Notes: generated by a model from the sequence alone, not told the origin. 63,769 nucleotides of DNA, filler included, from Reclinomonas americana ATCC 50394 (GCA_048213135.1; 5 parts of 4 records of this genome joined end to end with filler, not necessarily neighbours in it), one strand, 5' to 3'; numbered from the whole stretch's first letter, positions 3,839 to 63,769 are shown. Made by a program: numbers and translations.

Positions 3839-4942
3839 TCACAAGCGATTGCTTGCGTCGGCGAAGCACCGATGCAGAATAACCTCGGCCTCCTCGACCA
3901 CGAAGCAGCGGAGCACCATCTCTGGAAGGCAACGCGAATCTCGCACCTGGTCCCCCTCTGCACCCTGCCGCTGCATCTCCTGCACAGCACGCATGGCCGA
4001 GCGCGCACAATCGACCTCCTCTCGCGCGAGGCAATGAGGAGTAGACCATACCCTCACTGTGCAGTCTGGGCTGCCACTCACAATGTGCTGACCATCGGGA
4101 GAGACGGCAACGTACTCTATCCCTTCGGTGTGCCCCACCAACCGCCGCACCTCCTCACCACTTGCCAGCGACCACACCCGCACTGTCTGGTCCTGACTCC
4201 CGCTGACAATTAGCTCTCCATCGGGAGTAACTGTGACACAGCGCACCTCATCCGCGTGACCCTCCAACCGCCGCACTTCCTCTCCGCTCGCCAGCGACCA
4301 CACTCGCACTGTAAAGTCATCGCCCCCGCTCACGATGCACTGACCATCGGGAGTGACGACGGCAGACCACACATCGCCAGCGTGTCCCTCCAGTCGGCGC
4401 ACCTCCTTCCCACTCGCCAGTGACCACACTCGCACTGTTTCGTCTCCACTCGCACTCACAATGTGCTCGCCATCTGGAGTGACAGCGACCGACAACACGT
4501 ACGCGCGGTGCCCTGAAAGTAGATGCTCCATAGTGCCAGTCGCCAGCGACCACACTCGCACTGAACTATCCCAACTCCCACTAATCACGTGCCGCCCGTT
4601 GGGGGTGACAGCGACCGAGGATACCCAATTAGTGTGCCCCCGCAGCAGTCCCACTTGCTCTCCACTTGCCAGTGCCCACACTCGGACTGTGAAGTCGTCG
4701 CCACCGCTCACAACATGCAGCCCATCAGGAGTGATGGCGACAGCCGATACTCCTGCAGCGCATCCCTCGAGCCGTTGGACTTCCTTTCCGGTCGCCAGCG
4801 ACCACACTCGCAGAGTGCAGACGGCGCTGGCACCGCCAATCACAATGTGATCCGAGGTGACGGTGACACATGATACGACGTCATCGTGACGGAACACGTA
4901 CTTGCATGGGAGAGAAGGAGGAGGAGGAGGAGCGGAGGTCAT
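3839..4942 (-). CDS. Intronless 7-blade WD40 protein with conserved C-terminal helical module (array 1)
   Basis: Uninterrupted ORF starting MTSAPPPPP, repeats of GH..V.SVAVTPDG..VVSG..D.TVRVW, ending RCLPEMVLRCFVVEEAEVILHRCF. Confidence 0.92.
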   Translation of the reverse strand: MTSAPPPPPSLPCKYVFRHDDVVSCVTVTSDHIVIGGASAVCTLRVWSLATGKEVQRLEGCAAGVSAVAITPDGLHVVSGGDDFTVRVWALASGEQVGLLRGHTNWVSSVAVTPNGRHVISGSWDSSVRVWSLATGTMEHLLSGHRAYVLSVAVTPDGEHIVSASGDETVRVWSLASGKEVRRLEGHAGDVWSAVVTPDGQCIVSGGDDFTVRVWSLASGEEVRRLEGHADEVRCVTVTPDGELIVSGSQDQTVRVWSLASGEEVRRLVGHTEGIEYVAVSPDGQHIVSGSPDCTVRVWSTPHCLAREEVDCARSAMRAVQEMQRQGAEGDQVRDSRCLPEMVLRCFVVEEAEVILHRCFADASNRL

Positions 4943-5322: not shown

Positions 5323-6417
5323 TCAGAACCGGAGACAGTCGTCCGTGGAGCACCGATGAACAACAACCTCCGCCTCCTCGACCACGAAGCAGCGCAGCAC
5401 GATCTCCACCAGACACCGCTGTTCTTCCTCTTCCCGCATCGCCTGCACCGCCCACATGGCCTCCCGCGCACAATCGAGCTCTTGGCGAGCGAGGCCGCAC
5501 GGAGTGGACCACACTCGCACTGTTCCATCCACACAGCCACTGACAATATGCTGGCCATCGGGACTGACGGCAACCGACTGCACTGTGTCGGTGTGCCCCA
5601 CCAACCGCCACACCTCCTCGCCGCTCGCCAGCGACCACACCCGCACAGTCTCGTCGACACTTCCGCTAACAATGAACTCACCATCGGGAGTAACTGTGAC
5701 ACAGTGCACGTCATCCGCGTGACCGTCCATTCGTCGCTCCTCCTCACCGCTCACCAGCGACCACACTCGCACTGTGAAGTCATCGCTCCCACTCACGATG
5801 TGCTGACCATCGGGAGTGATGGCGACAGACCACACGAAGTCAGTGTGTCCCTCCAGTCGGCGCACCTCCTTCCCACTCGCCAGTGACCACACTCGCACTG
5901 TTTCGTCTCCACTCGCACTCACAATGTGCTCGCCATCTGGAGTGACAGCGACAGACAACACACTCATGAGGTGTCCTTCGAGTTGACGCTCACAGTTGCC
6001 AGTCGCCAGCGACCACACTCGCACTGAACTATCCCAACTCCCACTAATCACGTGCCGCCCATTGGGGGTGACAGCGACCGAGGATACCCAATTAGTGTGC
6101 CCCCGCAGCAGTCCCACTTGCTCTCCGCTTGCCAGTACCCACACTCGGACTGTGGAGTCGTCGCCACCGCTCACAACATGCAGCCCATCGGGAGTGACGG
6201 CAACTGATCGCACGACACCAGTGTGTCCCTCCAGCCGGCACACTTTTGCGCCACTCGCCAGTGACCACACTCGCAGAGTGCAGACGGCGCTGGCACCGCC
6301 AATCACAATGTGATCCGAGGTGACAGTGACACAAGGTACGGCGTCATCGTGACGGAACACGTTCTTGCATGGTAGAGACGGAGGAGGAGGAGGAGGAAGA
6401 GAAGGAGCGGAGGCCAT
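5323..6417 (-). CDS. Intronless WD40 protein, same family (array 1)
   Basis: ORF starting MASAPSLPPP, 7 WD repeats, same C-terminal module. Confidence 0.92.
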   Translation of the reverse strand: MASAPSLPPPPPPSLPCKNVFRHDDAVPCVTVTSDHIVIGGASAVCTLRVWSLASGAKVCRLEGHTGVVRSVAVTPDGLHVVSGGDDSTVRVWVLASGEQVGLLRGHTNWVSSVAVTPNGRHVISGSWDSSVRVWSLATGNCERQLEGHLMSVLSVAVTPDGEHIVSASGDETVRVWSLASGKEVRRLEGHTDFVWSVAITPDGQHIVSGSDDFTVRVWSLVSGEEERRMDGHADDVHCVTVTPDGEFIVSGSVDETVRVWSLASGEEVWRLVGHTDTVQSVAVSPDGQHIVSGCVDGTVRVWSTPCGLARQELDCAREAMWAVQAMREEEEQRCLVEIVLRCFVVEEAEVVVHRCSTDDCLRF

Positions 6418-6778: not shown

Positions 6779-7849
6779 TCACAAGCGATTGCTTGCGTCG
6801 GCGAAGCACCGATGCAGAATAACCTCGGCCTCCTCGACCACGAAGCAGCGCAGCACAATCTCCACCAGACACCGCTGTTCTTCCTTTTTCCGCATCTTCT
6901 GCACCGCCCACATGGCCTCCCGCACACTGTCGAGCTCCAGCCGAGCGAGGCCGCACGGAGTGGACCACACTCGCACTGTTCCATCCACACAGCCACTCAC
7001 AATATGCTGGCCATCGGGACTGACGGCAACCGACTGCACTGTGTCGGTGTGCCCCACCAACCGCCGCACCTCCTCGCCGCTCGCCAGCGACCACACCCGC
7101 ACAGTCTGGTCGACACTCCCGCTCACAATGAACTCACCATTGGGAGTAACTGTGACACAGCGCACCTCATCCGCGTGACCGTCCATTTGTCGCTCCTCCT
7201 CACCGCTCACCAGCGACCACACTCGCACGGAGCAGTCACTGCTCCCACTGACGATATGCTGCTCATCGGGAGTGATGGCGACAGACCACAAGTGATCAGA
7301 GTGTCCCATCAACCGCCGCATGTCGTCGCCAGTTGCAAGTGATCGCACTCGCACTGCGTTGTCGTAATCGCAAGAAGTCACGATATGCTGACCGTCTGCA
7401 GTGACGGCGATCGATGCTACCGATTCGCGGAACTGTCGCACAGGATCTCCACTCGTCAGCGGCCAATCTAGCACTGTCAAATGCCAACTCCCAGTGACCA
7501 CATGCTGACCATCGAGAGTGACGGCAACTGATGTTACATCTCCATCGAGGTCCTCAAACATTCGAATCTCATCTTCAGTCGCCAGTGACCACACACGCAC
7601 GGTCTCGTCGGCGCTCCCACTCACGACGTGCTCACCATCGGGAGTGACGGCAACCGATCGCACGACACCAGTGTGTCCCTCCAGCCGGCACACTTTTGCG
7701 CCACTCGCCAGTGACCACACTCGCACCGTCTTGTCGGCACCGCCACTCACCACGTGTTGCCCGTCGGGAGTGACAGCGACACTGTACACGACGCCACAGT
7801 GACCGCGCAAGCATTTGGACGGAAGGGAAGGGGGAGGCGTGGAGGTCAT
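6779..7849 (-). CDS. Intronless WD40 protein, same family (array 1)
   Basis: ORF starting MTSTPPPSLP, 7 WD repeats (some degenerate), same C-terminal module. Confidence 0.92.
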   Translation of the reverse strand: MTSTPPPSLPSKCLRGHCGVVYSVAVTPDGQHVVSGGADKTVRVWSLASGAKVCRLEGHTGVVRSVAVTPDGEHVVSGSADETVRVWSLATEDEIRMFEDLDGDVTSVAVTLDGQHVVTGSWHLTVLDWPLTSGDPVRQFRESVASIAVTADGQHIVTSCDYDNAVRVRSLATGDDMRRLMGHSDHLWSVAITPDEQHIVSGSSDCSVRVWSLVSGEEERQMDGHADEVRCVTVTPNGEFIVSGSVDQTVRVWSLASGEEVRRLVGHTDTVQSVAVSPDGQHIVSGCVDGTVRVWSTPCGLARLELDSVREAMWAVQKMRKKEEQRCLVEIVLRCFVVEEAEVILHRCFADASNRL

Positions 7850-8259
7850 GTCGGTGCGTGTGTGGACGAGGCAAGGACGATGATGCAGTGTCCTCCGCAC
7901 TCTTGGGAAGTTGTTTCGAAGGCAAGCACTTTGGTATCACCCCACCGCAACGTGTATTACACATGCCTTGCATTACCTCTAAGGGGTCAGAGAGTTTGCA
8001 GCGGTTTGCAACAAGGATTACGATACAGTTCTAGGCGATGGGAGAATGAGCTGGATAAACAGTGATGCCTTCCGACCACAGACATTGGCGAACATCGAAG
8101 AACAGCAGGAAAAGAGAGAAAGGAACGCAATGCGAGACAGACAGCCACCGATGCTCGTCCAACACAACCGGCGACGATCATCAATGAGAGATGCCACAGG
8201 GAAAAGAGAGAGAGAGAGACATACACAGTGGAACGAAAAGGGCCAGCGATGCTCACCCA

Positions 8260-9351
8260 TCAAAAACGGAGCTCGTGATCGTGGTCGCTGCGATGTAGAA
8301 CTACAGCCGCATCCTCGACGATGAAGCAACGCAGCACCATCTCCGGAAGGCATCGCGAATCTCGCACCTCCTCGTTTCCACCTCCCCGTTGCATCTCCTG
8401 CACAGCACGCATGGCCTCCCGCGCACAATCGAGCTCCTGCCAAGCGAGGCCGCACGGAGTGGACCACACTCGCACTGTTCCATCCACACAGCTACTCACA
8501 ATATGATGCCCATCGGGACTGACGGCAACGGACTGTACTGCGTCGGTGTGCCCCACCAACCGCCGCAACTCCTCGCCACTCGCCAGCGACCACAGACGCA
8601 CAGTCTTGTCCTCACTGCCACTCACTATGTACAGACCATCACGAGTGACGGCGACAGACAGTACGGAATCAGTGTGCCCATCCAACACTCGCACTAACTC
8701 TCCACTCGCCAGTGACCACATACACACTATTTGGTCACACGCCCCGCTGACAATGAACTGACCATCGGGAGTGACGGCGACAGAACACACGTAGTCATCG
8801 TGTGCGTTTAACCATCGCAACTCTTCTCCAGTCGCCAGTGACCGCACCCGCACTGTACATGTGCAGTCGTAATCACTTGCAAACACGACATTCTCCCCGT
8901 CGGGAGTGACAACGATGCATGTCGCCGAAGCGCCAAACTGTCGCACCTCCTCACCACTCGCCAGCGACCACACTCGCACTGCGCCATCCCAGCCTCCACT
9001 CACAACATGCTGTCCATCGGGTGTGCCAGCAACAGAACGCACGCTTCCATGGTGGCCCTTCAACAATCGAATCTCTTCTCCACTCGCCAGTGACCACACT
9101 CGCACCGTGCTGCCTGTACCCCCACTCACAACGTGCAGGCCATCGGGAGTGATGGCGACAGAGAGCACTGCATCAGTGTGTCCCTCAAAGCGTTGTATTT
9201 CGCGCCCACTGGCCAGTGACCACACACGCACAGTGAAGTCGGCACCGCCACTCACCACGTGTTGCCCATCGGGAGTGACGGCGACACTGTGCGCGGCACC
9301 GCGGTGGCCACACAAGCGCTTGGATGGGAGGAAATGAGGGACTGCGGACAT
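8260..9351 (-). CDS. Intronless WD40 protein, same family (array 1)
   Basis: 363-aa ORF starting MSAVPHFLPSKRLCGH, 7 WD repeats, same C-terminal module. Confidence 0.92.
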   Translation of the reverse strand: MSAVPHFLPSKRLCGHRGAAHSVAVTPDGQHVVSGGADFTVRVWSLASGREIQRFEGHTDAVLSVAITPDGLHVVSGGTGSTVRVWSLASGEEIRLLKGHHGSVRSVAGTPDGQHVVSGGWDGAVRVWSLASGEEVRQFGASATCIVVTPDGENVVFASDYDCTCTVRVRSLATGEELRWLNAHDDYVCSVAVTPDGQFIVSGACDQIVCMWSLASGELVRVLDGHTDSVLSVAVTRDGLYIVSGSEDKTVRLWSLASGEELRRLVGHTDAVQSVAVSPDGHHIVSSCVDGTVRVWSTPCGLAWQELDCAREAMRAVQEMQRGGGNEEVRDSRCLPEMVLRCFIVEDAAVVLHRSDHDHELRF

Positions 9352-9355
9352 GTGA

Positions 9356-9397
<42 letters not shown>

Positions 9398-9809
9398 GGA
9401 GAGAGAGAAAGTGTGTGTGTGTGTGTGTGTGTGCGTGTATGTGTGTGTGTGTGCGCGTGTGATGGTCAACAGTGTCCTCCAATCTTCGCAACTTCAACTT
9501 GCGACGTGGGCTCCCCCTGTATCATGCATCCGAAAACAGAGACAGCACCTGGCAAGCAGGGGTCAGGCCAGGGATGAGGCGATTCGGTGCTGTTGAGTTG
9601 TACTGTACCTCAGTAGCGAGAATACAAAGATTTCGTTGCCTTCTTGCGTGACTCACAGAAAGCGCTGCAAAGGGGCTCCTCTTGCGCTCTTTTCTCCACC
9701 ACGTAGACGACGCGTTGTTTTCCGGACGATCATCACTCGTTTGCGTTCTGTGGAAGTGGCTGTGGAGGTGCGGTCTCTGCAAAATCGAGCATACAACTGC
9801 ATGTGTATT

Positions 9810-14513: not shown

Positions 14514-15158
14514 TGGGTGTGATGAGAATATGTCCTGCGGAATAGTAATCAACTTCACTGATCCATGCACAGCAATGAGCATCTACTAGTGATCGCCAAC
14601 AAGTCTCGTGTGCCCTCCTACAAATAAAACTTTTATCGACGTTGAGAAACCATACATAGTCAATTCTGGACACATTTACAGCCTCAAGGCCTTTGCTGGC
14701 TTGCATGCGAGAGAGTGTATCTGGCTCAGGCCGTACATGCACACGCAGAGGCTATGCGGTGTCATTTGTTGCTCATTCTGTGCATTCTTATATCGACGTC
14801 GACAGCAATTGCAAGCGACGTCGTGCAGCAACGTCGAGGCTATCCATCCTCCTCACAGCCTCCTGCTCATCAACCACCGTGCTCGCACATTGCGCACGCT
14901 GAAGACTATCATGATGGGTCGCAACGGCGGCTCAGAACTCACCGTCAAGCCATCGACGTTGCGAATTTCGACCACTGGAAGGAAACAAAGCTCTGTCGCA
15001 CATCGCTGCACGTGTTCCTTCACTTGTTACTACGCCCTCCGCAGCCACACAAGCTCCACTCTTCCACTGCGCGCCTCACACTCCAAGAAAAAAGCGCGGG
15101 ACAAAAAACTGACCGTTACTTTTCCAAGTCACAGTCACTCAATCGCGCACCAAGTGCA

Positions 15159-30742: not shown

Positions 30743-30786
30743 NNNNNNNNNNNNNNNNNNNNNNNNNNNNNNNNNNNNNNNNNNNN

Positions 30787-30798
30787 TTAATTAATTAA
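30787..30798. other. Artificial assembly linker TTAATTAATTAA in a 100-nt N spacer
   Basis: Flanked by 44 N on each side; stop codons in all frames. Confidence 0.95.
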
Positions 30799-30903
30799 NN
30801 NNNNNNNNNNNNNNNNNNNNNNNNNNNNNNNNNNNNNNNNNNCGTGTGTGTGTGTGTGTGTGTGCGGCGATCCTTGTCGACCGACGTTGAATTCTGATGA
30901 TAG

Positions 30904-51100: not shown

Positions 51101-53067
51101 ACGCAGCATGCAGTCCAACCTGCAAATGCCACCCAATGCTCGCGACGCCATTCGTATGAATGACCTGCTGGAGGACGAAGGCGAGGGTCGGTCAGGCAAG
51201 CCTCGCGGCAGCGCACGAGAAGGTTTCACGCACTTTGCTTGACATTATATGATAATGACCGCATGCTCATGTTTATTTTCTCGCGAATCAGTGGCCACCA
51301 TGGATCAACCGCTGAAGGCTGCTGCGATGCGAATCCACCGGCGTGGCGAGGGTGGTGGCAGTCCGAGTGCCGGCGGCGGTAAGAGCGGTCGCAAGCGGCC
51401 CAGCAGCGCCACTTTTCGCTCGTTGCGCTCCCCTTCTTCTTCCTCCTCCCTCCCTCCCTCCCTCGCGCGTGCCGCCTCTCAATCCTGCGTTCATGCAATG
51501 CAGACCCACGGCCACGGCACACGCGGTGACGGCCACGACTGCCACCGCATCGGCCGCTCCTCCGTCTGGCAAGTCCGGCACTGGGCGGCAGCGGCCAAGC
51601 TCGGCGCCTGTGCGGCGGTCAGCCAGCACGAATGGACCTGCCAGCCCCCAAGAGAAAAAGGCCAACGAGCTGGCTGCCGCCACCGACAAGCGCACTGGAC
51701 GTGTGCAGTCGAAGGACTGGGAGGCGTACGAGCAGGACATGGCCAAGTGGTTCTTCTCGGAGATTGTCAACAACATTGTGTCGAAGCGACTGTTCGCCAC
51801 CGACGACCTCTCGCAACTGTTCGCCAACTGCGACTACCAGGCGGTGAAGATTGCAACAAAGAGCGGACTCGACCCGCAAGTGCTGCTGGATGTCGTCAAG
51901 CAGCTACGTGCGGAATTCAACGTTCCGGAGCCACTGGAGGAGGCCATGTTGCAAGTCGGCAACACGGACAGCGGTAGGAGGCAACCGGCCGGTGGCGCTG
52001 CGTCGGTGAGTCCAATGAGCAAGTTCTATGTGGGGATGATTTTCATGTTTCCTTACTGATCGACGCAGAAATCCAAGACCGATGCCTCGAAGAAGCTGCG
52101 CGACAGTTCCGAGTCGCTCTCTCCCGCCCAGAAGGGCAAGAGGGGGCAGTCCGACGCGCGCAAGAATCCGTACGTGGACGAAGACGAGGATGAAGAAGAG
52201 GAGGACGAGGACGCTGCCATGGATCGTGTCTTTGGCCGACTCGACGCTGTGCGTGAGAAGCGCGAGGGTACCAAGCCTCCTGCTGCTTTCTCGGGCGTTG
52301 TCAAGAAGCAGGCAGCGACGGGAGCGGCAGTGGATGAGGAGGACGAGGCGATGGATCGCGTCTTCGGCCGGCTTGACGCCGTGCGCGCCAAGAGGCAGGG
52401 CACTGAGCCTCCTGCGTCGTTCACGACGAATGTCAGGAAGCAGCCGATGACCTCATCAGCTCTGGAGCCGGAGGATGAAGATGAGGATGCCGCGATGGAT
52501 CGCGTGTTTGGTCGACTCGACGCAGTGCGCTCACAGAGAGAGGGCACCAAGGCTCCCTCTGCCCCCGCTCCCGCTCGTGCTCCGGCTGCCGCCTCGGGCA
52601 GCCGGAAGAAGCCTGCTCTCCAGCCCGAGGATGAAGATGAGGATGCCGCGATGGATCGCGTGTTTGGTCGACTCGACGCGGTGCGCTCGCAGAGGGAGGG
52701 CACCAAGGCTCCCTCTGCTCCCGCTCCCGCTCGTGCTCCGGCTGCCGCCTCGGGCAGTCGGAAGAAGCCGGCTCTCCAGCCCGAGGATGAAGATGAGGAT
52801 GCCGCAATGGATCGCGTGTTTGGTCGACTCGACGCGGTGCGGTCGCAGAGGGAGGGCACCAAGGCTCCTTCCGCTCCCGCTCCCGCGCGTGCTCCGGCTG
52901 CTGCCTCTGGCAGCCGGAAGAAGCCTACGCCCGAGCCGGAGGATGAGGACGAGGATGCAGCGATGGACCGTGTGTTCGGCAGACTCGATGCTGTGCGCTC
53001 GAAGAGGGAAGGCACCAAGGCTCCCTCTGCTCCTGCTCCCGCTCGTGCTCCGGCTGCTGCCTCCGGT
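48131..53067 (+). CDS. SPATA7: SPATA7-like ciliary protein with a C-terminal tandem repeat; 3' truncated
   Basis: Spliced MLIREHMRYHVARVSTAKSSVDAHTP resembles the SPATA7 N-terminal motif. FFSEIVNNIVSKRLFATDDLSQLF...LLDVVKQLRAEF resembles the second conserved SPATA7 block. Confidence 0.65.
50677..50765. repeat. 24-bp minisatellite (~4 copies), intronic
   Basis: (T/C)ACCCTCGCCCCTTTCCCTCCCTT in tandem. Confidence 0.8.
52200..53067 (+). repeat. Coding tandem repeat, 156 bp / 52 aa, at least 6 units
   Basis: MDRVFGRLDAVR ATGs at 52219, 52351, 52495, 52651, 52807 and 52963. Confidence 0.92.
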
Positions 53068-53111
53068 NNNNNNNNNNNNNNNNNNNNNNNNNNNNNNNNN
53101 NNNNNNNNNNN

Positions 53112-53123
53112 TTAATTAATTAA
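53112..53123. other. Artificial assembly linker
   Basis: TTAATTAATTAA within an N run. Confidence 0.95.
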
Positions 53124-53167
53124 NNNNNNNNNNNNNNNNNNNNNNNNNNNNNNNNNNNNNNNNNNNN

Positions 53168-53236
<69 letters not shown>

Positions 53237-53622
53237 TGAGGGAGTGAGGCAGGGAGGGAGTGAGGGAGAGAGAGAGTGAGAACAAAGAGAGAGAGTGACA
53301 GGCCGCGATTAGGCGATGACTTAGGCGACGACTAAGGCGACATTGATTGCTCTGTGTGGGTGTGGGTGTGTGTGTGTGTGCAAGTGTCTGTTTGTGTGTG
53401 TGAGAGAGAGAGAGTGAGGGAGGGAGGGAGTGAGGGAGGGAGAGCGAAGTAAAGAGAGAGTGGTGTGATTAGATGACGACTTAAGACGACGACTAAGGCG
53501 ACACTGAATGTGTGAGTGTGTGCGCGGACTGCTGACAACAGAGAGACAGTGGTGTCTCTTTTCTCTCCCCTTTCCCCCAGACTCCCTCTCTCTCCCTCTC
53601 CCTTTCCCCCCGCCTCCGCAAC

Positions 53623-53847
53623 TCCACTATTCTTCACCAACGGCTGCACCGCCGACAACGTATACACGGCATAGGCGCGCGCCAAATCGCCGAGAGAGCG
53701 CCACGCAAACGCCCGCTCAGTGTTCGCAAAGTCAAGAACCGATGAAGTTGGAGAAGGCGAAGAGGTGGTGGAGAGTGCGCGGAGTGTCAAGGAGAGCGGT
53801 GGAGGCAGTGGTGGTGAGCGGAGAAGCCCACGTGAGAGGCGTAACAT
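53623..53847 (-). CDS. PRODH: Mitochondrial proline dehydrogenase, first exon (rest lost at join)
   Basis: Arg/Ser/Leu-rich transit peptide MLRLSRGLLRS..., then LDFANTERAFAWRSLGDLARAYAVYTLSAVQPLVKN, matching the PRODH N-terminal pattern. Confidence 0.7.
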
Positions 53848-54029
53848 GGGCGGAGACAAACGGAGAAATAGCGATCAGTGGGACGATAATTGCAAGTCGT
53901 GTTGTCTTTCTTTCCATGTACGTAAGAGGAGAGTGGTGAGCGGAGAAGCCTGCATGAGAGTGATTATGGGCGATATTTGACAGTGTGAGACGACGTCGAC
54001 TGATCATGATCGCTGCGCGTTCTCAAAAA

Positions 54030-54160
54030 AAAAAACACTTCATTCACCACATTCCAGTAATGCGATAAACGCCCACAAATCCCTTGCCGACAATGACCTT
54101 GGCACACCAACAATATACAAAACACATAATTACTTCTCCAACATCGTCGACGTCTTCCCT
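54030..54160 (+). repeat. Dispersed repeat family A, upstream of WD40 array 2
   Basis: Matches the reverse complement of 9810-9890 and of 46497-46570. Confidence 0.8.
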
Positions 54161-54479
54161 TAAGCTTTCAAGCTCTTCGAATTCGTTTGTTGCCTCCCGT
54201 TGTCAGCTTTACTCTAACAGAGAGTAAGATCGAGGCATTGATGAGCGAGATACACGCGCATTCGTGCTGTGTTAGAGGCGCGCGCAGTTGCAACGTGCGA
54301 CGTCTTCTTTGTCGACGTCGACTGTCGACAGTTCATCTTCATTCGTTGCGCTTTGTTGACGTCATCTGCTATGCAAGTGCCTGCCTCTTTCTTCCGCGCA
54401 GCTGTCTCGCGCTGAGAGCATGAAGTTGAAGTTACCTATGACACTCTCCGTCCCTTCGAATTCCTCTCCTGAGTCGCGC

Positions 54480-55583
54480 ATGTCGTCTGCAACTCCTCCC
54501 TCCCTCCCTCACACGTGCTTGCGTGGACACGAGGCAGAAGTGGTGTCGGTCGCCGTCACTCCCAATGGCCAGTTTATTGTGAGCGGGAGTCTTGACAAGA
54601 CAGTGCGTGTGTGGTCCCTGGCGAGTGGGGAGGAAGTGCGTCGGTTTGAGGGACACACTCAAGCTTTGTGGTCTGTCGCCGTCACTCCTGATGGACAGCA
54701 CGTGGTGAGCGGGAGCGCTGACACCACTGTGCGAGTGTGGTCGCTGGCGGGCGGGGAAGAAGTGCGGCGGCTGGAGGGACACACCAAGGGAGTGACGTCT
54801 GTCGCTCTCACTCCTGATGGTCAGTTTGTTGTGAGTGGGAGTGGAGACTGGACGGTGCGAGTGTGGTCACTGGCGAGTGGCGAGGAGGTGTGTCGGTTGA
54901 AGGGACACACTCGTGTGGTGCGCTCTGTCGCTGTCACTCCCGACGGTCGGCACGTGGTGAGTGGGAGTCTGGATCACACGGTGCGAGTGTGGTCACTGGC
55001 AAGTGGAGAGACGGTGTTGCGGCTGGAGGGACACATGACGTGGGTGACCTCGGTTGCCGTGTCACTCGATGGTCAGCATATTGTGAGTGGCAGCTTCGAC
55101 TGGACTGTACGAATGTGGTCCATCGCAAGTGGCGAAGAAGTGCGACGATTCGAGGGCTACACTGGTCCGGCATATGCTGTTGCCGTGTCTCCCGACAATC
55201 GGCACATGGTGAGCGGAGATCGAAACAGGTACATTCGTGTGTGGTCGCTAGCTGCTGGCCAGGAAGTGCGGCGGCTAAAGGGGCATGCCGCTGATGTGTC
55301 TTCTGTTGCCTTCACTCCCGATGGTGAGCTCATTGTGAGTGGTAGTGACGACAAGACTATCCGCGTGTGGTCGACACCGCGTGGTCTTGCGCGGCAGGAG
55401 CTCCAGTGTGCGCGACTGGCGATGCAGGCTGTACAGGCGATGCAGCGTGAGAGCTATGATGATGACGACGACGACAAAGAGGATCCACGTTGTTTGGTGG
55501 AGATTGTGATGCGATGCTTCTTGGTGGAGGAGGCGGAGGTTCTTGTTTATCGGTGTTTCGCCGATGACAGTCTCCTGCTTTGA
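54480..55583 (+). CDS. Intronless WD40 protein, same family (array 2)
   Basis: Starts MSSATPPSLPH, 7 WD repeats, ends DPRCLVEIVMRCFLVEEAEVLVYRCFADDSLLL. Confidence 0.93.
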   Translation: MSSATPPSLPHTCLRGHEAEVVSVAVTPNGQFIVSGSLDKTVRVWSLASGEEVRRFEGHTQALWSVAVTPDGQHVVSGSADTTVRVWSLAGGEEVRRLEGHTKGVTSVALTPDGQFVVSGSGDWTVRVWSLASGEEVCRLKGHTRVVRSVAVTPDGRHVVSGSLDHTVRVWSLASGETVLRLEGHMTWVTSVAVSLDGQHIVSGSFDWTVRMWSIASGEEVRRFEGYTGPAYAVAVSPDNRHMVSGDRNRYIRVWSLAAGQEVRRLKGHAADVSSVAFTPDGELIVSGSDDKTIRVWSTPRGLARQELQCARLAMQAVQAMQRESYDDDDDDKEDPRCLVEIVMRCFLVEEAEVLVYRCFADDSLLL

Positions 55584-56224
55584 TGAAGATGGAGAGACGC
55601 GCCCGGGGACTCTCTCTCTCTCTCTCCCTCTCNNNNNNNNNNNNNNNNNNNNNNNNNNNNNNNNNNNNNNNNNNNNNNNNNNNNNNNNNNNNNNNNNNNN
55701 NNNNNNNNNNNNNNNNNNNNNNNNNNNNNNNNNNNNNNNNNNNNNNNNNNNNNNNNNNNNNNNNNNNNNNNNNNNNNNNNNNNNNNNNNNNNNNNNNNNN
55801 NNNNNNNNNNNNNNNNNNNNNNNNNNNNNNNNNNNNNNNNNNNNNNNNNNNNNNNNNNNNNNNNNNNNNNNNNNNNNNNNNNNNNNNNNNNNNNNNNNNN
55901 NNNNNNNNNNNNNNNNNNNNNNNNNNNNNNNNNNNNNNNNNNNNNNNNNNNNNNNNNNNNNNNNNNNNNNNNNNNNNNNNNNNNNNNNNNNNNNNNNNNN
56001 NNNNNNNNNNNNNNNNNNNNNNNNNNNNNNNNNNNNNNNNNNNNNNNNNNNNNNNNNNNNNNNNNNNNNNNNNNNNNNNNNNNNNNNNNNNNNNNNNNNN
56101 NNNNNNNNNNNNNNNNNNNNNNNNNNNNNNNNNNNNNNNNNNNNNNNNNNNNNNNNNNNNNNNNNNNNNNNNNNNNNNNNNNNNNNNNNNNNNNNNNNNN
56201 NNNNNNNNNNNNNNNNNNNNNNNN

Positions 56225-56695
56225 GGGAGTGATCGCGACAGAGAATACCGAATCTGAATGTCCCTTCAGCTGTCGCTCTTCCTCGCCACTCGACAATGAG
56301 CACACTCGTATCGTGAGGTCCGGATTGCCACTCCCGCTCACAACGCGCTGCCCATCGGGAGTGACGACGACGCACCACACTACACTTTCGAAGTGTCCCT
56401 CCAGCCGCAGCACTTCCTTGCCACTCGCCAGTGACCACACACGCACCGTGGAGTCACCACTCCCACTGACCACATGCCTCCCGTCGGGAGTGACAGTGAC
56501 AGACCACACTGGATAAGTGTGCCCCTCAAACCGACGCACTTCTTCTCCACTCGCCAGCGACCACACTCGCACCGTCTGGTCCACGCTGCCGCTCACAACA
56601 TACTGACCATCGGGCGTGACAGCAACAGAAGTCACATCACTCTCGTGTCCACGCAAGCACTTGTGCGGGAGGGAGGGAGGAGTTGCGGATGACAT
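56225..56695 (-). CDS. WD40 family gene, 5' half on an inverted contig (probably joins 57350-58002)
   Basis: Starts MSSATPPSLPHKCLRGH, about 3.5 repeats, ends VAITP at the gap. Confidence 0.85.
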
Positions 56696-57349
56696 TTCGT
56701 GCGTGAGAGAAGGGCGATGAGAATTGAGGGGACGCCGACGTTGGACTTCATCATACCGCTGAGCAGCGACTGCATTCGCGCTCCTTTTTAATGGTCGAAG
56801 GAAAGATAGAAACAGACGATAAGCTGACAGAAGGGCAATTAAAGTGCAAAGCGGGGCCGCAGAAGAAAGCGGCGGAAACAACGGAGTGGGAGGGAGGGAG
56901 AGTGAGAGTGAGAGGGAGGAGGGAGAGGGGAGAGGGAGAGGGAGAGGGAGATAGAGAGGGAGATAGAGAGGGAGAGGGAGGAGGGAGAGGGAGAGAGAGA
57001 GAGAGACGGTCCCGGGCGCGTCTCTCCATCTTCATACAAAGCAGGAGACTGTCANNNNNNNNNNNNNNNNNNNNNNNNNNNNNNNNNNNNNNNNNNNNNN
57101 NNNNNNNNNNNNNNNNNNNNNNNNNNNNNNNNNNNNNNNNNNNNNNNNNNNNNNNNNNNNNNNNNNNNNNNNNNNNNNNNNNNNNNNNNNNNNNNNNNNN
57201 NNNNNNNNNNNNNNNNNNNNNNNNNNNNNNNNNNNNNNNNNNNNNNNNNNNNNNNNNNNNNNNNNNNNNNNNNNNNNNNNNNNNNNNNNNNNNNNNNNNN
57301 NNNNNNNNNNNNNNNNNNNNNNNNNNNNNNNNNNNNNNNNNNNNNNNNN

Positions 57350-58002
57350 GACGGTCAGCACGTTGTTTCCGGGAGTTTTGACGAGACAGTGCGAGTGTGG
57401 TCACTGGCAAGCGGCGAGGAAGTACGGCGGTTTGAGTGCCCAGGAGTGTCAATCGCCGTCAGTCCAGATGGTCGGCTGCTCCTCTGTGGGAGTGACGACG
57501 GCACTGTGCAAGTGCGGTCGCTGGCGAGCGGCGAGGAGTTGCGACGGTTTGTGGCACACGCAATGAGGGTGTCGTCTGTTGTTGTTACTCCCGGTGGCCT
57601 GCATGTGGTCACCGGGAGTGAGGACATGACAGTGCGGGTGTGGTCACTGGCCACAGGGGAGGAAGTGCGACGGCTGGAGGGGCACACCGAGAGTGTGTAT
57701 TCGATTACCCTCACTCCAGATGGCGAGCACCTTATAAGTGGCAGTGACGACCAGACAGTGCGAGTGTGGTCAATGCCGCGTGCGCTTGCTCGGCAGGAAC
57801 TTCAGTGTGCGCGTCTGGCCATGCAGGCTGTACAGGTGATNNNNNNNNNNNNNNNNNNNNGCAGCGAGAGAGCGACGACGACGATGATGAGGAGGAGGAG
57901 GATCCACGTTGTTTGGTGGAGATTGTGTTGCGGTGCTTCTTGGTGGAGGATGCAGAGGTTGTTGTTTATCGGTGTTTCGCCGAGGACAGTCTGCTGCTGT
58001 AA
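57350..58002 (+). CDS. WD40 family gene, 3' half
   Basis: Begins DGQHVVSGSFDETVRVW, ends RCFAEDSLLL*. Confidence 0.85.
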
Positions 58003-58290
58003 CCTGCTTTGGAATGGATACGGGGAGGGGGAGTGGCGCTCTCTCCCTATCTCCCACCCTCCGTCCCTTCCACTCTCGTGCCTTTTTTGTCTTGTCTGCC
58101 TCATCATTTCGGATTCATTTTCATCGGCACTCTGCATTTCTTTCGTTTGCGATTTTGCCGACTTCTCACCTGTTTCTCGCTTTCCTTCGCCCAGTAAAAG
58201 AAGTGTGCATTGTTGACAAGGTGCACTCTGACGACGTTAAACGTGTCCTTTCCTTTTCAGGACGCGCTCTCCCACACGCACACATCCGTC

Positions 58291-59388
58291 ATGTCATCTG
58301 CACCTCCTCCCTCCCTCCCTCACAAGTGTTTGCATGGACACGATGCTGGAGTGATGTCCATCGCTGTCACCCCAGACGGGCAGCACTTTGTCACCGGATG
58401 TTCCGACAAGACAGTGCGAGTGTGGTCGCTGACTACAGGCGAGGAAGTGCGACGTTTGGAGGGACACACTGGTTGGGTGCAGTCTGTGGCCGTCACTCCC
58501 GATGGTCAGCATGTGGTGAGCGCGGGTGACGACACTACAGTGCGAGTGTGGTCCCTGTCGACAGGAGAAGAAGTGCGACTGCTCAGGGGTCACCTTGAGT
58601 CGGTTTGGTCGCTCGCCATCACTCCCGATGGGACGCGTGTTGTGAGTGGAGGCGTGGGCATGGATGTGCGAGTGTGGTCTCTGGCGAGTGGAGACCTGGT
58701 GCACCTGTTGGAGGGACACACGAACTGGGTGCGCTCTATCGCTGTCACTCCCGACGGTCAGCACGCTGTGAGTGGGAGTGACGACGAGACAGTGAGAGTG
58801 TGGTCCCTGGCGAGTGGCAAGGAAGTGCAACGACTTGTGGGTCACGAGGACTGGGCAATGGCGGTGGCTGTCACGCCCAATGGCCTACATGTGGTGAGTG
58901 GGAGTTCGGATTACACAGTGCGAGTGTGGTCGCTGTCGAGCGGGGAGGAGGTGCGACAGATGGAGAGCAGCACTTTCTGGTCGTCTGTTGCCGTCTCGCC
59001 CGATGGTCAGTACGTGGTCAGTGGTGGTGGCGACAAGACAGTGCGGGTGTGGTCGCTAGCTACTGGCCAGGAAGTGCGGCGATTGGAAGGGCACACCGAG
59101 TCTGTGAATTCAGTTGCGTTCACTCCCGATGGTGAGCGCATTCTGAGCGGCAGTGGCGACAAGACAGTGCGCTTGTGGTCGACGCCGCGTGGTCTTGCAC
59201 GGCAGGAGCTCCAGTGTGCGCGCCTGGCCATGGAGGCTGTACAGGCGATGCAGCGAGAGAAGGATGACGACGACGACGAGGAGGAAGATCCGCGCTGCTT
59301 GGCGGAGATTGTGATGCGGTGCTTCTTGGTGGAGGAGGCGGAAGTTGTTGTTTATCGGTGTTTCGCCGACAACAGTCTCCTGCTGTAA
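58291..59388 (+). CDS. Intronless WD40 protein, same family (array 2)
   Basis: Complete ORF with 7 repeats plus the C-terminal module. Confidence 0.93.
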   Translation: MSSAPPPSLPHKCLHGHDAGVMSIAVTPDGQHFVTGCSDKTVRVWSLTTGEEVRRLEGHTGWVQSVAVTPDGQHVVSAGDDTTVRVWSLSTGEEVRLLRGHLESVWSLAITPDGTRVVSGGVGMDVRVWSLASGDLVHLLEGHTNWVRSIAVTPDGQHAVSGSDDETVRVWSLASGKEVQRLVGHEDWAMAVAVTPNGLHVVSGSSDYTVRVWSLSSGEEVRQMESSTFWSSVAVSPDGQYVVSGGGDKTVRVWSLATGQEVRRLEGHTESVNSVAFTPDGERILSGSGDKTVRLWSTPRGLARQELQCARLAMEAVQAMQREKDDDDDEEEDPRCLAEIVMRCFLVEEAEVVVYRCFADNSLLL

Positions 59389-59664
59389 CCTGCCTGAGGG
59401 GGAGTGGTGCTTTCTCCCTCTCGCACTCTCTCTGGATCCACTCCGCTGTGTATGCCTCTTTCTTCGTCATCGCCACCTTGTATTTTCTGATGTCGACGTC
59501 GTCAGCTTCTCATGCGTTTGTCTCCTTCTTCCTGCATTAAAGAGTGTGACTGCAGTTGCTGCGGTGTGTCGATGAGGAGCTATAGGTGTGGCGAAGTTGA
59601 ATGGCGGCGCCCCTTCACGGCAAGGACACACATACGCACACACGCCCGCACGCACACATCCGTC

Positions 59665-60771
59665 ATGTCGTCAGCAACTCCTCCCTCCCTCCCTCACAAG
59701 TCCTTACATGGACACGAGGCACAAGTGGCGTCTGTCGCCGTCTCTCCCAATGGCCAGTTTATTGTGAGCGGAAGCCTTGACACGACAGTGCGTGTGTGGT
59801 CACTGGCAACAGGCGAGGAAGTGCGTCGGTTTGAGGGACACACTCATGGTGTGTGGTCTGTCGCCGTCACTCCCGATGGACAGCATGTGGTGAGCGCGAG
59901 TGAAGACTGCACAGTGCGAGTGTGGTCACTGGCGAGTGGCGAGCAGGTGCGGCGGCTGGAGGGACACACTGACAGAGTGACGTCTGTCGCCGTTACGCCT
60001 GACAGTCAGTTTGCTGTGAGCGGGAGTGGAGACGAAACGGTGCGTGTATGGTCACTGGTGAGTGGCGAGGAGGTGCAACGGCTGTACGGACACACTCGCT
60101 TGGTGCGGTCAGTTGCTATCACTCCTGATGGCCGGCACGTTGTGAGTGGGAGTTATGACGAGACAGTGAGAATGTGGTCGCTGGCCAGTGGAGAGGAGGT
60201 GTTGCGGTTGCAGGGGCACATTACATATGTGTGCTCGGTTGCCGTGTCACCCGATGGTCAGCATATTGTGAGTGGCAGTCATGACTGGACAGTGCGCGTG
60301 TGGTCCATCGCAAGTGGCAAGGAAGTGCGACGGTTTCAGGGCTACACTGGTCCAGCATATGCTGTCACCGTCTCCCCGAATAGTCAGCACGTGTTGAGTG
60401 GGTATCGTGACGACAAGATTCGTGTATGGTCAATGGCGAGTGGAGAAGAACTGTGGCGACTGGAGGGACACGCTGGTGATGTGGCATCTGTTGCCGTCAC
60501 TCCCGATGGTCAGCACATTATTAGCGGGAGTGAGGACAGGACTGTGCGTGTGTGGTCGATGCCGCGTGCGCTTGCTCGGCAGGAACTCCAATGTGCGCGA
60601 CTGGCGATGCAGGCTGTACAGGCGATGCAGCGAGGGAGCGACGACGACGACGAGGAGGAGGAGGAGGAGGATCCGCGCTGCTTGGTGGAGATTGTGTTGC
60701 GATGCTTCTTGGTGGAGGAGGCGGAGGTTATTGTTTATCGGCGTTTTACCGATGCCAGTCTCCTGCTTTGA
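59665..60771 (+). CDS. Intronless WD40 protein, same family (array 2)
   Basis: Complete ORF; most similar to the gene at 54480-55583. Confidence 0.93.
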   Translation: MSSATPPSLPHKSLHGHEAQVASVAVSPNGQFIVSGSLDTTVRVWSLATGEEVRRFEGHTHGVWSVAVTPDGQHVVSASEDCTVRVWSLASGEQVRRLEGHTDRVTSVAVTPDSQFAVSGSGDETVRVWSLVSGEEVQRLYGHTRLVRSVAITPDGRHVVSGSYDETVRMWSLASGEEVLRLQGHITYVCSVAVSPDGQHIVSGSHDWTVRVWSIASGKEVRRFQGYTGPAYAVTVSPNSQHVLSGYRDDKIRVWSMASGEELWRLEGHAGDVASVAVTPDGQHIISGSEDRTVRVWSMPRALARQELQCARLAMQAVQAMQRGSDDDDEEEEEEDPRCLVEIVLRCFLVEEAEVIVYRRFTDASLLL

Positions 60772-61057
60772 TGAAGATGGAGAGACGCGCCCGGGGACTC
60801 CCTCTCTCTCTCCCTCTCTCCCTCTCCCTCTCCCTCTCCCTCTCCATCTGTTGTGGCTCCTCTTTTTTCTGCGGCGCCACTTTGTTCTTTGATTACCTTC
60901 TGTCAGCTTCTCGTCTGTTTTCATCATCTCTTCCCCCATGCATTAAAGCGAATGCGACAACAGCCAACGTTGCGACGTCGGTTGGTAATGAAATCCATGT
61001 CCCCTGCCAAAGGACACAGTCTCACACACGACACGCACGCACACACGCTCACTTCTC

Positions 61058-61478
61058 ATGTCGTCTGCAGCTCCTCCCTCCCTCCCTCACAAATGTTTGC
61101 GTGGACACCAGGCACAAGTGACTTCTGTCGCCGTCACTCCCGATGGCCAGTTTGTTGTGAGTGGCTGTGTGGACGAGATGGTGCGAGTGGTGTCACTGAT
61201 GACTGGAGAAGAAGTGCGACGTATGGAGGGACACACTGGCTGGGTGCGATCTGTCGCCATCACTCCCAATGGTGAATTCGTCGTGAGCGGGGGAGACGAC
61301 GGCACAGTGCGAGTTTGGTCGCTGGTGAGTGGCGAGGAGGTTCGACGACTCTCAGGGCATGCTGAGGCAGTCTTCTCACTCGCCATTACTCCCGATGGGA
61401 GGCATGTTGTGAGTGGAGGCATGGACAGTGATGTGCGAGTGTGGTCACTGGCGAGTGACAAGGATGTGCGGCGTATGG
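61058..61478 (+). CDS. WD40 family gene, 5' part (truncated by join)
   Basis: Starts MSSAAPPSLPHKCLRGH, followed by 3 repeats. Confidence 0.88.
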
Positions 61479-61522
61479 NNNNNNNNNNNNNNNNNNNNNN
61501 NNNNNNNNNNNNNNNNNNNNNN

Positions 61523-61534
61523 TTAATTAATTAA
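61523..61534. other. Artificial assembly linker
   Basis: TTAATTAATTAA within an N run. Confidence 0.95.
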
Positions 61535-61641
61535 NNNNNNNNNNNNNNNNNNNNNNNNNNNNNNNNNNNNNNNNNNNNGTGTGTGACGCCGGTCTACTTG
61601 GTGTGTTGAGTGCACTGAGTGTTTTTTTCTGTTTGTCGCAG

Positions 61642-63700
61642 GCCAACAAGTGGATTCGTGCCATGGAGGCCAAGAACGGCCTGAAGATCATCAAGATGGG
61701 TGGTGACAACTACCTGCAGGTGATCAAGAACGCCATTCTCATCGGTCAGCCCGTGCTGTGCGAAGACATGGGCGAGTTCCTCGACCCGGCGCTGGAGACC
61801 CTGCTGTTGAAGCAGGTGATCAAGCTGAAGGGCGGCCGCAAGGTGCTCTTCTTCGACGGCAAGGATGTGGACTATGACAAGAATTTCCGCTTCTACATGA
61901 CGACCAAGATGGCCAACCCGCACTACCTGCCCGAGGTGTGCATCAAGGTCACGGTGATCAACTTTACAGTCACCACCAATGGTTTGTGTGAGGCGGGCGC
62001 GCGGTGCGTGAAATGGCGTGAACAACTCACATCCGGGATGCGCAGGTTTGGAGGACCAGCTTTTGGCCGATGTGGTGCAAGAAGAGCGTCCGGAGCTGGA
62101 GGACATGAAGAACAAGTTGGTGTTGAAGGTGGCTGCCGACAAGAAGCAGTTGGTGGAGATCGAAAACGACATTCTGCACATGCTCTCCAACGAGGAGGGT
62201 GAGATTCTCGACAATGAGAAGCTCATCAAGACGCTGGAGGAGTCCAAGGTCACTTCGGAGCTCATCACTGAGCGTGTCGCCGAGGCCGAGAAGACCGAGG
62301 CGAAGATCAGTTGCGTGACGACGTGCTCGTGGTGCATCTGGATGGATGATACTCATTCTGGTATTTTTTCTGTTGTTGCGTGCAGACGAGGCTCGTGAGG
62401 AGTTCAGACCAATCGCCATTCGTGGCTCGATTCTGTACTTTGTGGTGGCCGACTTGGCCAGCATCGATCCGATGTACCAGTACTCGCTGGAGTTCTTCAA
62501 AGCCCTCTTCCTCAACACCATGCGCCGCACCGACGCCCCCGACGATATCCACATCAAGAGTCGCATGTACATTACGAACATCACGGAGACGGTGTACACG
62601 TCGGTGTGCCGTGGTCTCTTTGAGCGCCACAAGCCCATCTTCTCGTTCTTGATGTGCACATCGGTTCTGCGGCAATCGCTGGCCATTTCGCCAGCCGACT
62701 GGGCGCTCTTCCTGCGCGGTCAGGCCATGGTGGATCGCACCAAGATGGTGCCGAATCCGGCACCGCAAGCCATTCGAGAGCGCACGTGGGAGCTGCTGCT
62801 CGCAGCGGAGCAGAACATTCCGGTGAGTGGTGGCGCGAGAAGAGAGATATCATATGTGTATGTGTGTGCGGTGATCTCACACGTCCTTGCAGCAATTCCA
62901 AGGCATCACGGCGAACGTCGCTGCCAATATGGACGCGTGGTTGGAGTACTCTGCCGACGATCGCATCCACACCAAGCCGACGCCGGCTGTGGGTGGCGTG
63001 AACTGGAATACGCAGCTGTCGGGTTTCCAGCGATTGCTGCTGGTGCGCGCATGGCGCGAGGAGAAGGTGCGTGCTGCTCGACTGTCTTGTGTGTTGCTTG
63101 TTGTCGCTCGCGAATCTCACGACTGTGTGTCGACGCAGCTGTACTTCTCGGTGTTGAACTTTGTGGAGACGTCGTTTGGCGAGCACTTTATCAAGTCGCC
63201 GCCGTTCGACCTTGCACAGACGCACGAGAGCATGGACATTTCGACGCCGTGCATCTTTATTCTGTCGACTGGCGCCGATCCGACCAGCATTGTCATGCGC
63301 TTCGCCGCGGAGCGCAACAAGACGCTGCGTATCGTGTCCCTCGGACAGGGTCAGGAGGAGATTGCCAAGCGCAACATTGAGGAGGCGAAGCAGGATGGCG
63401 AGTGGGTGTTGTTGCAGAACTGCCATGTGGTGCGTCTTGTGTTTCTCTCTCCTGTGTGTCATGTTGTGAAATGTGAGTTGCTCACATGTGTGTGTGGTGG
63501 TGCGCACACGCAGGCCGTCTCCTTCTTGCCTGAAGTGGAGAAGAAGATCGCCGAGTTGGCAGCCGCCAAGGCCTCCGGCTCCGTTCGCGTCAACGTGGAC
63601 TTCCGTCTCTGGCTGACCTCCATGCCCTCGAATGAGTTCCCCATTCCGATTCTGCAGAATGGCGTGAAGCTGACTGTGGAGCCACCGAAGGGCCTGAAGG
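61642..63700 (+). CDS. DNAH6: Axonemal inner-arm dynein heavy chain, AAA5-AAA6 region, DNAH6-like (internal fragment, 6 exons)
   Basis: Motifs [87 protein letters not shown] and DFRLWLTS. Confidence 0.9.
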
Positions 63701-63708
63701 GTACGTTT

Positions 63709-63762
<54 letters not shown>

Positions 63763-63769
63763 GAGGAGG

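Follow-up and report, generated by a model that had tools for sequence, protein, structure and literature searches.

The question raised by positions 54,480 to 60,771 of a 63,769-nucleotide stretch of DNA from Reclinomonas americana ATCC 50394 (GCA_048213135.1; hereafter "the window", in which five parts of four records are joined end to end with filler) is where its WD40 repeats vary and whether selection has driven that variation. A first-pass annotation, made from the sequence, had proposed that variation is concentrated at a few positions of a nearly invariant repeat scaffold, that these positions map to the top face of a propeller, and that they correspond to those under diversifying selection in HET-E-type WD repeats. 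The explanation that we favour, with a probability of about 0.62, is a lineage-specific tandem family of stand-alone propellers with a diversifying top face and a common tail.

A repeat hidden Markov model (HMM) built from the window delimited 60 WD units of 42 residues in ten genes, of which 58 are whole and two are cut by runs of N; 29 units (27 whole) lie inside 54480-60771. The earlier figure of about 60 repeats was correct for the whole window but not for the interval, and what had been taken for an array of that size consists instead of separate seven-blade genes. The register was read on the first unit of gene E, E1 = LRGHEAEVVSVAVTPNGQFIVSGSLDKTVRVWSLASGEEVRR (54519-54644), in which G3, H4, V8, D26 and W32 are numbered accordingly. 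Over the repeat units of the window, Shannon entropy peaked at positions 27, 7 and 9 (3.68 bits) and at position 25 (3.63 bits), with 16-17 residue types at each; a second tier comprised positions 6 (3.03 bits), 2 (2.83 bits) and 5 (2.72 bits), and the remaining 35 positions spanned 0.37-2.12 bits. The four leading positions displayed 54 distinct residue combinations in 56 units, and tryptophan accounted for 22 of their 224 residues (9.8%), compared with 2.8% in the scaffold. The supposed near-invariance of the scaffold was borne out by the majority residues G3 (50/54), H4 (51/56), V8 (49/57), P15 (52/59), D26 (52/59), R30 (56/59), W32 (54/59) and S33 (56/59), but not at the unit end, where positions 38-42 ("EEVRR") have their majority residue in merely 33-38 of 59 units.

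Across 27 phylogenetically disjoint pairs of same-numbered blades, the 42 positions were unequal in how often their amino acid differed (chi-square 200.8, 41 degrees of freedom, p 6e-23). Differing comparisons amounted to 95/155 at six top-face positions versus 52/270 at ten bottom-loop positions (Fisher p 3e-18). With entropy peaking at positions 7, 9, 25 and 27, variation is concentrated at few repeat positions and not spread evenly over the surface, as first described. The examples given for the stretch after the GH pair were all located, namely QALW, KGVT, RVVR and TWVT in blades 2-5 of gene E, GWVQ, ESVW and DWAM in gene H, and HGVW and TYVC in gene I, as were those for the turn between strands b and c (LDK, ADT, GDW, LDH and FDW in gene E, SDY in gene H, YDE and HDW in gene I). 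A division of the propeller into a conserved and a variable half was rejected, with identity over the four positions of 0.10-0.17 in every blade.

Pfam family PF00400 matched seven stretches per protein in the three proteins tested (E 1e-75 to 2e-83), and the scan of these three returned WD40 and propeller families only, with no NACHT and no HET domain. The protein of gene I was modelled with AlphaFold, using the seven complete paralogues as the input alignment. The resulting model (predicted local distance difference test, pLDDT, 87, with 96-98 for the blades; predicted template-modelling score, pTM, 0.82) is a closed seven-blade ring of 28 strands, in which residues 11-14 supply the last strand of blade 7 and so close the ring. 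Its best template-modelling score (TM-score) in Foldseek, against solved seven-blade WD40 propellers, was 0.97. In repeat register, DSSP assigned strand a to positions 8-13, b to 19-24, c to 28-33 and d to 39-42 plus 1-2, with the d-a loop at 3-7, the b-c turn at 25-27, and the a-b (14-18) and c-d (34-38) loops on the opposite side. Because the d-a and b-c connections make the top face in the established WD40 topology, the variable residues, found in the d-a loop or at the start of strand a and in the b-c turn, line the top face of the model, as had been proposed, and its bottom loops are conserved.

The blades of a gene are well diverged from each other. Within genes (148 pairs), they share 54% protein and 62.5% DNA identity; protein identity is 62.5% without the variable positions and 6.6% at the four most variable ones, and the proportion of synonymous differences (pS) in the scaffold over all unit pairs is 0.53. 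The nearest DNA neighbour is the same-numbered blade of another gene for 34 of 38 units among those listed, all eight blade-7 units form one clade (bootstrap 100), and at third positions a blade is closer to its same-numbered counterparts in other genes (identity 0.59) than to the blades of its own gene (0.53). Since blades group by number across genes, their sequences indicate that the seven-blade array is older than the gene duplications and that there is no concerted evolution within genes. Exchange between paralogues is nevertheless evident in gene B, a mosaic of A-like blades 1, 2b, 3 and 4 (81-100% DNA identity) and C-like blades 2a and 5-7 (81-98%) with its breakpoint in the middle of blade 2. 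To judge from these identities, this gene directly documents that paralogues have recombined or undergone gene conversion, with d-a loops and b-c turns re-assorted as a result. The ten pairs of d-a loops (15 nt) that differ by at most 2 nt all belong to same-numbered blades, which means that loops have not been exchanged between different blade numbers within the window. Blade 1 of genes A and B (4772-4891 and 6235-6354) was found to have lost the GH pair and the TPDG turn (FRHDD..., VTSDHIVIGGASAVC); the blade is conserved between the two (86% DNA identity) and represents a derived state peculiar to A and B.

As blades are orthologous by number, selection was assessed between same-numbered blades, and the four test positions (7, 9, 25 and 27) were fixed a priori from the HET-E paper (PMC1805685). 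Pairwise codon likelihood over the 27 disjoint pairs, each with its own distance, gave a nonsynonymous-to-synonymous rate ratio (dN/dS, omega) of 2.44 for the four positions versus 0.28 for the rest, with a likelihood-ratio test (LRT) statistic against 1 of 27.5. Taken singly, position 7 had an omega of 4.1 (LRT 18.4), position 27 one of 3.5 (21.0) and position 9 one of 2.0 (6.4). A parametric bootstrap with omega capped at 1 (300 replicates) placed the 95% point of the largest LRT over the 42 positions at 6.0 and its maximum at 10.6. The pairwise excess was robust to other codon-frequency models and was recovered from each of the two gene clusters alone (2.7 and 2.2).

Site models were fitted to 294 sites with our own code, whose M0 likelihood equals that of IQ-TREE (-5905.61), and posteriors were obtained by naive empirical Bayes. 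The M1a/M2a comparison yielded an LRT of 28.4 when one tree was used and 26.9 when each of the seven blades had its own tree. Neutrality was rejected in the M7/M8 comparison that the first-pass annotation had put forward (LRT 76.9), and M8a/M8 gave 26.8, with an omega of about 2.3 for 13% of sites. Posteriors exceeded 0.8 at 28/294 sites, of which 18 correspond to positions 7, 9, 25 and 27, seven to positions 2, 5 and 6, and three to others (19, 39 and 41). With the 58-unit alignment, the M1a/M2a LRT was 72.3 and the posterior reached 1.0 at positions 7, 9 and 27. Scaffold omega was 0.24-0.28. When the synonymous rate (alpha) was left free beside the nonsynonymous rate (beta), the 15 closest pairs, with DNA identities of 78% or more, showed beta/alpha of 5.8 for positions 7 and 27 together (p 0.014) and 2.9 for the four positions (p 0.021), with alpha at 0.6-0.95. 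Local silent-rate windows returned an omega of 8.7 for position 7 and 11 for position 27, values of little weight, as several windows had zero estimated distance. Taken together, positions 7, 27 and 9 are likely to be under diversifying selection, as read from these codon comparisons. The anticipated dN/dS above 1 at the variable sites was accordingly found for these three positions in site models of the PAML type, but not for positions 25, 2, 5 and 6, which lie about 1, and the dual-rate tests reached significance in the 15 closest pairs only.

A number of results weigh against selection. The comparisons were made between paralogues and not between alleles or orthologues. Position 25 had an omega of 1.2-1.4 (not significant) and positions 2, 5, 6 and 41 were about 1, with the other 34 at 0.03-0.71; positions 25, 2, 5 and 6 thus look merely unconstrained. 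With a free synonymous rate over all 27 pairs, beta/alpha for positions 7 and 27 was 2.3 (p 0.11). Tree-based dual-rate tests gave an alpha of 2.7 and a beta of 2.0 for the four positions (ratio 0.76, p 0.29) and, overall, non-significant ratios of 0.76-1.16 with alpha at 2.2-2.8, and single-position LRTs of the fixed-effects-likelihood (FEL) type were 1.9 for position 7 and 0.6 for position 27, neither of them significant. As the excess under a free synonymous rate is mostly non-significant, these codons may also have evolved neutrally at a raised overall rate. An alignment of all repeats, which had been suggested for estimating dN/dS, was unsuitable, since all-against-all Nei-Gojobori counts were saturated, with pS of 0.75-0.79 at the variable codons and a ratio of nonsynonymous to synonymous proportions (pN/pS) of 0.8-1.0 there. 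Even the closest gene pairs are already at a scaffold synonymous divergence (dS) of 0.28-0.49, and with dS at 0.28 or more, omega can be inflated by multiple hits and by changes of several nucleotides at once. Recombination was handled by the pairwise and per-blade designs only, and branch lengths were fixed up to one scale factor. A functional reading of the variable face, moreover, is something that we infer.

Much of this would be expected under relaxed constraint only, with the top-face positions unconstrained (omega about 1) in redundant duplicates and values above 1 produced by saturation, multi-nucleotide changes, recombination or a silent rate lowered by codon preference; identity between blades at positions 7, 9, 25 and 27, at 6.6-6.8%, equals that of fully randomised residues. 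We regard this account as unlikely, though it deserves to be taken seriously. Four designs with a shared silent rate strongly reject an omega of 1, and the bootstrap maximum under the capped null falls below the LRTs observed at positions 7 and 27. The 15 closest pairs, which are the least saturated, are those with beta/alpha of 2.9-5.8, and in them the amino acid differs at 35/60 hypervariable codons, compared with a silent-only difference at 86/523 scaffold codons. Redundancy is also at odds with the intact open reading frames (ORFs) of 7/7 complete copies and their scaffold omega of 0.24. A mutational mechanism, in which the large pool of paralogous blades donates short conversion tracts or hypermutation is targeted to these codons, would swap whole loops and raise silent and replacement change alike. 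It would account for the fitted synonymous rate at the four codons of 2.7 times the background on trees, for the 47/105 hypervariable codon pairs that differ at 2 or 3 nucleotides, and for the breakpoint inside blade 2 of mosaic gene B. However, silent change at codons 8 and 26, which would fall inside such tracts, runs at 0.48 times the background (p 0.003), and the flanking codons, at 0.71-0.81, are not raised either. Codon pairs that keep their amino acid differ silently in 4/34 cases at variable codons versus 180/717 in the scaffold, and the near-identical d-a loops speak against any transfer between blade positions. As these silent rates argue against a local hot spot, the raised alpha is probably a by-product of repeated replacements in deep comparisons, and a mutational origin of the pattern is improbable.

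The interval is situated on the piece spanning 53168-61478 and holds five separate intronless genes, E to I, two of which are cut by gaps. Six of the ten paralogues of the window (E-J) are on this piece, and the first piece carries the other four (A-D), all in minus orientation, within 3839-9351. The encoded proteins share one plan, with a short N-terminus (MSSATPPSLPH-like), seven 42-residue WD40 units and a conserved C-terminal tail of ~65 residues. All seven complete copies are uninterrupted ORFs of 356-368 codons with exactly seven blades each, and every gene has a start and a stop codon to itself, neighbouring genes being 277-414 bp apart. Genes F, G and J are incomplete through gaps or the end of a piece, not through mutations.

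The tail is under purifying selection (omega 0.13-0.49). In the AlphaFold model, its helix 300-323 has a pLDDT of about 60-70 and the terminal hydrophobic part is unconfident. A Pfam search with the tail found no family, its sole match (E 0.41) being an acidic low-complexity model, the tail profile had no match among PDB sequences at E up to 10, and the ESM Atlas provided no usable neighbour. A PTS1 signal, a CaaX box and a SOCS/BC box were rejected by eye, as the ends of the copies differ (-SLLL, -SNRL, -LRF) and the spacing is unlike that of these motifs. A profile of the seven tails, run with no length limit against 1.84 billion cluster representatives, matched only three proteins of 116-394 residues, and none of these matches was a longer fused form. 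One (P0124) is a transcript-derived ORF from Reclinomonas americana (EukProt EP00694 P005839; 116 residues, E 3e-20) that comprises the last blade plus the tail; it shares 70% identity with gene D over the final 113 residues of the latter. The other two, P0125 (394 residues) and P0126 (381 residues), are strongly diverged, non-repetitive propellers ending in the same tail, so that the tail is older or wider than the consensus-like propeller of the window. From these matches, "propeller plus this tail" is taken to be a narrow, lineage-specific build of which the tail would be the constant part; likewise, the stand-alone status of the proteins is deduced from gene structure and the tail profile search. 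Three full-length proteins were absent from a collection of 15 billion sequences. The propeller alone retrieved, among the matches listed (202-644 residues), metagenomic and bacterial WD40 proteins with 30-55% identity over about 77-80% of the query. A bacterial origin of the propeller was set aside, a judgement with no phylogeny behind it, given that consensus-like WD40 proteins match one another generically and that the GC content at third codon positions equals that of the dynein exons in the window.

This architecture bears on the mode of evolution that the likeness to HET-E had implied, that is, a NACHT receptor with near-identical repeats in concerted evolution, which was absent here. 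In principle, the window could encode WD repeats that evolve in concert, either as the sensor of a HET-E-like NOD-like receptor or within a single giant repeat protein, and the unit length, the four hypervariable positions and the number of combinations do resemble those reported, in the part of the source consulted, for the NWD family of Podospora. That each gene has its own start, stop and tail makes such a reading the least credible of those considered, as do the spacers, the lack of NACHT and HET domains in the Pfam scan, and tail-profile matches limited to proteins of 116-394 residues. The identity between blades of one gene (54% protein, 62.5% DNA) is likewise far from the figure of about 85% given for HET-E-type repeats in the text available, and blades cluster by number, as exemplified by the blade-7 clade. 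An assembly artefact or a decaying pseudogene array is nearly as implausible. A window stitched from five pieces with 27 runs of N, and three incomplete copies (F, G and J), might be read that way, but the incomplete copies are cut by gaps or by a piece end, gene G resumes after an unsized gap, the seven complete copies are open with scaffold and tail under purifying selection, and a transcript-derived relative exists in Reclinomonas americana.

The family of stand-alone propellers that we favour would have arisen by tandem duplication of intronless genes, each coding for one seven-blade WD40 propeller whose ring a short N-terminal strand closes and to which the tail of ~65 residues is appended. 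Purifying selection would hold scaffold and tail, and top-face residues would be replaced repeatedly between paralogues, chiefly at positions 7, 9 and 27 and then at 25, 5, 6 and 2, with replacement at positions 7, 27 and 9 outpacing background silent change by a factor of about 2-4. Diversity would stem from point substitution after gene duplication and from recombination between paralogues re-assorting whole loops, and homogenisation and shuffling of repeats inside a gene would play no role. The propellers may then constitute a panel of binding modules of differing specificity, which the common tail may couple to one shared partner or cellular place.

The features are compiled in Table 1. 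The window was stitched together from five assembly pieces and contains 27 runs of N. The four joints, of the form N44-TTAATTAATTAA-N44, are at 30743-30842, 43778-43877, 53068-53167 and 61479-61578 (4 matches; 0 expected by chance). Because the window is a concatenation, adjacency across the joints is artificial, both for the two WD40 clusters and for gene J and the dynein exons. Gene F is inverted with respect to its neighbours, and gene G contains a 20-N gap of unspecified size (57841-57860) that shifts the apparent frame, with the usual tail and stop resuming in the other frame.

Table 1. Coordinates of the WD40 genes and associated features, numbered from the first nucleotide of the window.
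Feature	Coordinates	Strand	Description
Hypervariable d-a loop, example	59842..59856	+	Gene I, blade 2, codons 5-9: T-H-G-V-W; V8 conserved, 7 and 9 hypervariable
Hypervariable b-c turn, example	59902..59910	+	Gene I, blade 2, codons 25-27: E-D-C; D26 conserved, 25 and 27 hypervariable
Gene I, C-terminal tail	60562..60768	+	Helix 300-323, acidic linker, helix 338-347, hydrophobic Cys-containing end
Gene E	54480..55583	+	Complete intronless ORF, 367 aa; N-terminal strand, 7 WD40 blades, tail; 7 Pfam stretches, 7 HMM units
Gene F	56225..56695	-	First 157 codons: blades 1-3 and start of 4; remainder in N gap 55633-56224
Gene G	57350..58002	+	Blades 4-7 and tail; 5' part in N gap 57055-57349
Gene H	58291..59388	+	Complete ORF, 365 aa; 7 blades and tail
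Gene I	59665..60771	+	Complete ORF, 368 aa; 7 blades and tail; structure-modelled protein
Gene J	61058..61478	+	First 140 codons (blades 1-3); truncated by piece end
Gene A	3839..4942	-	Complete, 367 aa; second cluster, other assembly piece
Gene B	5323..6417	-	Complete, 364 aa; A-like/C-like mosaic
Gene C	6779..7849	-	Complete, 356 aa
Gene D	8260..9351	-	Complete, 363 aa
Artificial joint	53068..53167		Opens the piece with genes E-J; second joint 61479-61578 closes that piece

Around the genes, CA-rich or CACG-rich tracts reach the ATG in A, B, C, D, H, I and J (e.g. 59545-59664 and 9352-9471). The 3' flanks are near-identical over more than 40 nt among A-C and also between E and I, so that the duplication units take in flanking sequence. 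Elsewhere in the window, the last piece carries dynein heavy chain exons at 61579-62199 (+) and 62875-63768 (+) (Pfam AAA_9, E 3e-40; Dynein_heavy D6, E 4e-35), which have no relation to the WD40 array. A 156-nt tandem repeat of 3.9 copies with 90% matches occupies 52459-53063, within an ORF at 52174-53115 (+) that is cut by the piece end. The encoded 52-residue unit, for which Pfam gave no match, combines an acidic stretch with a conserved AAMDRVFGRLDAV motif and a part rich in Ala and Pro. An ORF piece at 13947-14582 (-) carries an AKAP7 2'5' RNA ligase-like domain (PF10469, E 2.4e-6), and 51 of the 55 long ORF pieces scanned between the clusters lacked a Pfam match at E <=1e-5.

Among known structures, highly repetitive bacterial and designed propellers (38-42% sequence identity) ranked ahead of WDR5 (about 32%). 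From the entry titles, we take 5yzv to be a Thermomonospora WD40 domain, 2ymu a "highly repetitive propeller", and 7big and 7bie seven-blade WRAP-T designs. Entries 5yzv and 7big/7bie have consensus-like blades and TM-scores of 0.94-0.97 (normalised by target), and 2ymu, with 577 residues and 38-42% identity like the others, scores 0.48 when normalised by target. None of the four carries the tail, as no PDB sequence matched its profile, and their titles mention neither paralogue arrays nor a diversifying face. WDR5 (PDB 2h13, 2co0) is likewise a single seven-blade propeller with partners on its top face (TM-score about 0.9, 31-32% identity). It is, however, a conserved single-copy adaptor and is not known to have a tandem family, a hypervariable face or a tail of this kind.

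The closest parallel is with the HET-E/HET-D/NWD (HNWD) proteins of fungi, which also form a multigene family with WD units of 42 residues. According to the part of Paoletti 2007 (PMC1805685) that was consulted, codons 7, 9, 25 and 27 of HET-E/NWD repeats are positively selected and flank the conserved positions 8 and 26, one pair being in the d-a loop and the other in the b-c turn. The correspondence first proposed is upheld, in that the same four positions are hypervariable here, although identity of register was deduced from the structural description in that part of the source. The same text reports 55 combinations among 69 units for the NWD family of Podospora anserina, similar to the nearly one combination per unit found here (54/56), and there is evidence of omega above 1 in both systems, here under shared-silent-rate models for positions 7, 27 and 9. 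The differences are equally clear. Our proteins are bare propellers with an orphan tail and their own start and stop, whereas the fungal WD repeats accompany a NACHT NTPase and an N-terminal effector domain, and repeat number, which is polymorphic between alleles in the fungal family, is seven in every one of the seven complete paralogues. Blade identity is 54% with silent sites diverged (pS 0.53), in contrast with the internal conservation of about 85% amino-acid identity stated for HET-E-type repeats in the portion seen of Dyrka 2014 (PMC4986451). Blades here are orthologous by number, with no concerted evolution within genes and exchange between paralogues at homologous positions only. FEL-type tests are non-significant here, apart from the dual-rate result in the 15 closest pairs, and the host is a protist rather than a fungus.

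Jakobids are also among the protists with a mitochondrial type II secretion system that have the Pex7-like WD40 proteins Gcp1-3, for which the part of the source consulted (PMC8134430) names no close homologues beyond the broad WD40 superfamily; these are unlike a tandem family and were set apart by that description only. Searches of full-text literature (main texts, without supplements) revealed no publication that describes, for any protist, tandem arrays of stand-alone WD40 genes whose face diversifies. Diversifying WD40 faces are already known from fungal NOD-like receptors, and what appears to be new here, judging by sequence, is a HET-E-like diversification of the face without a receptor engine and without concerted evolution.

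In fungal NOD-like receptors, diversifying WD40 faces come with a signalling engine and with near-identical repeats that evolve in concert. In this deep-branching protist, the same four contact positions have diversified in bare propellers that carry a tail of their own, by ordinary duplication, substitution and recombination between paralogues. Tentatively, and as a possibility that we hold well short of even odds, the family might be the receptor repertoire of a free-living protist, built without the NOD/STAND engine, in which dozens of stand-alone propellers, their top faces kept different by diversifying selection and re-assorted by paralogue recombination, would be plugged by the orphan tail into a common effector, as an "antibody-like" panel by which prey, symbionts, viruses or kin are recognised. 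Should both the selection and the diversity of binding hold, a propeller face alone can act as a repertoire scaffold, and these proteins, with about 365 residues, a rigid fold and four to seven variable positions per blade, would provide a tractable system for what a unicellular predator must tell apart and for which partner the tail reports to.

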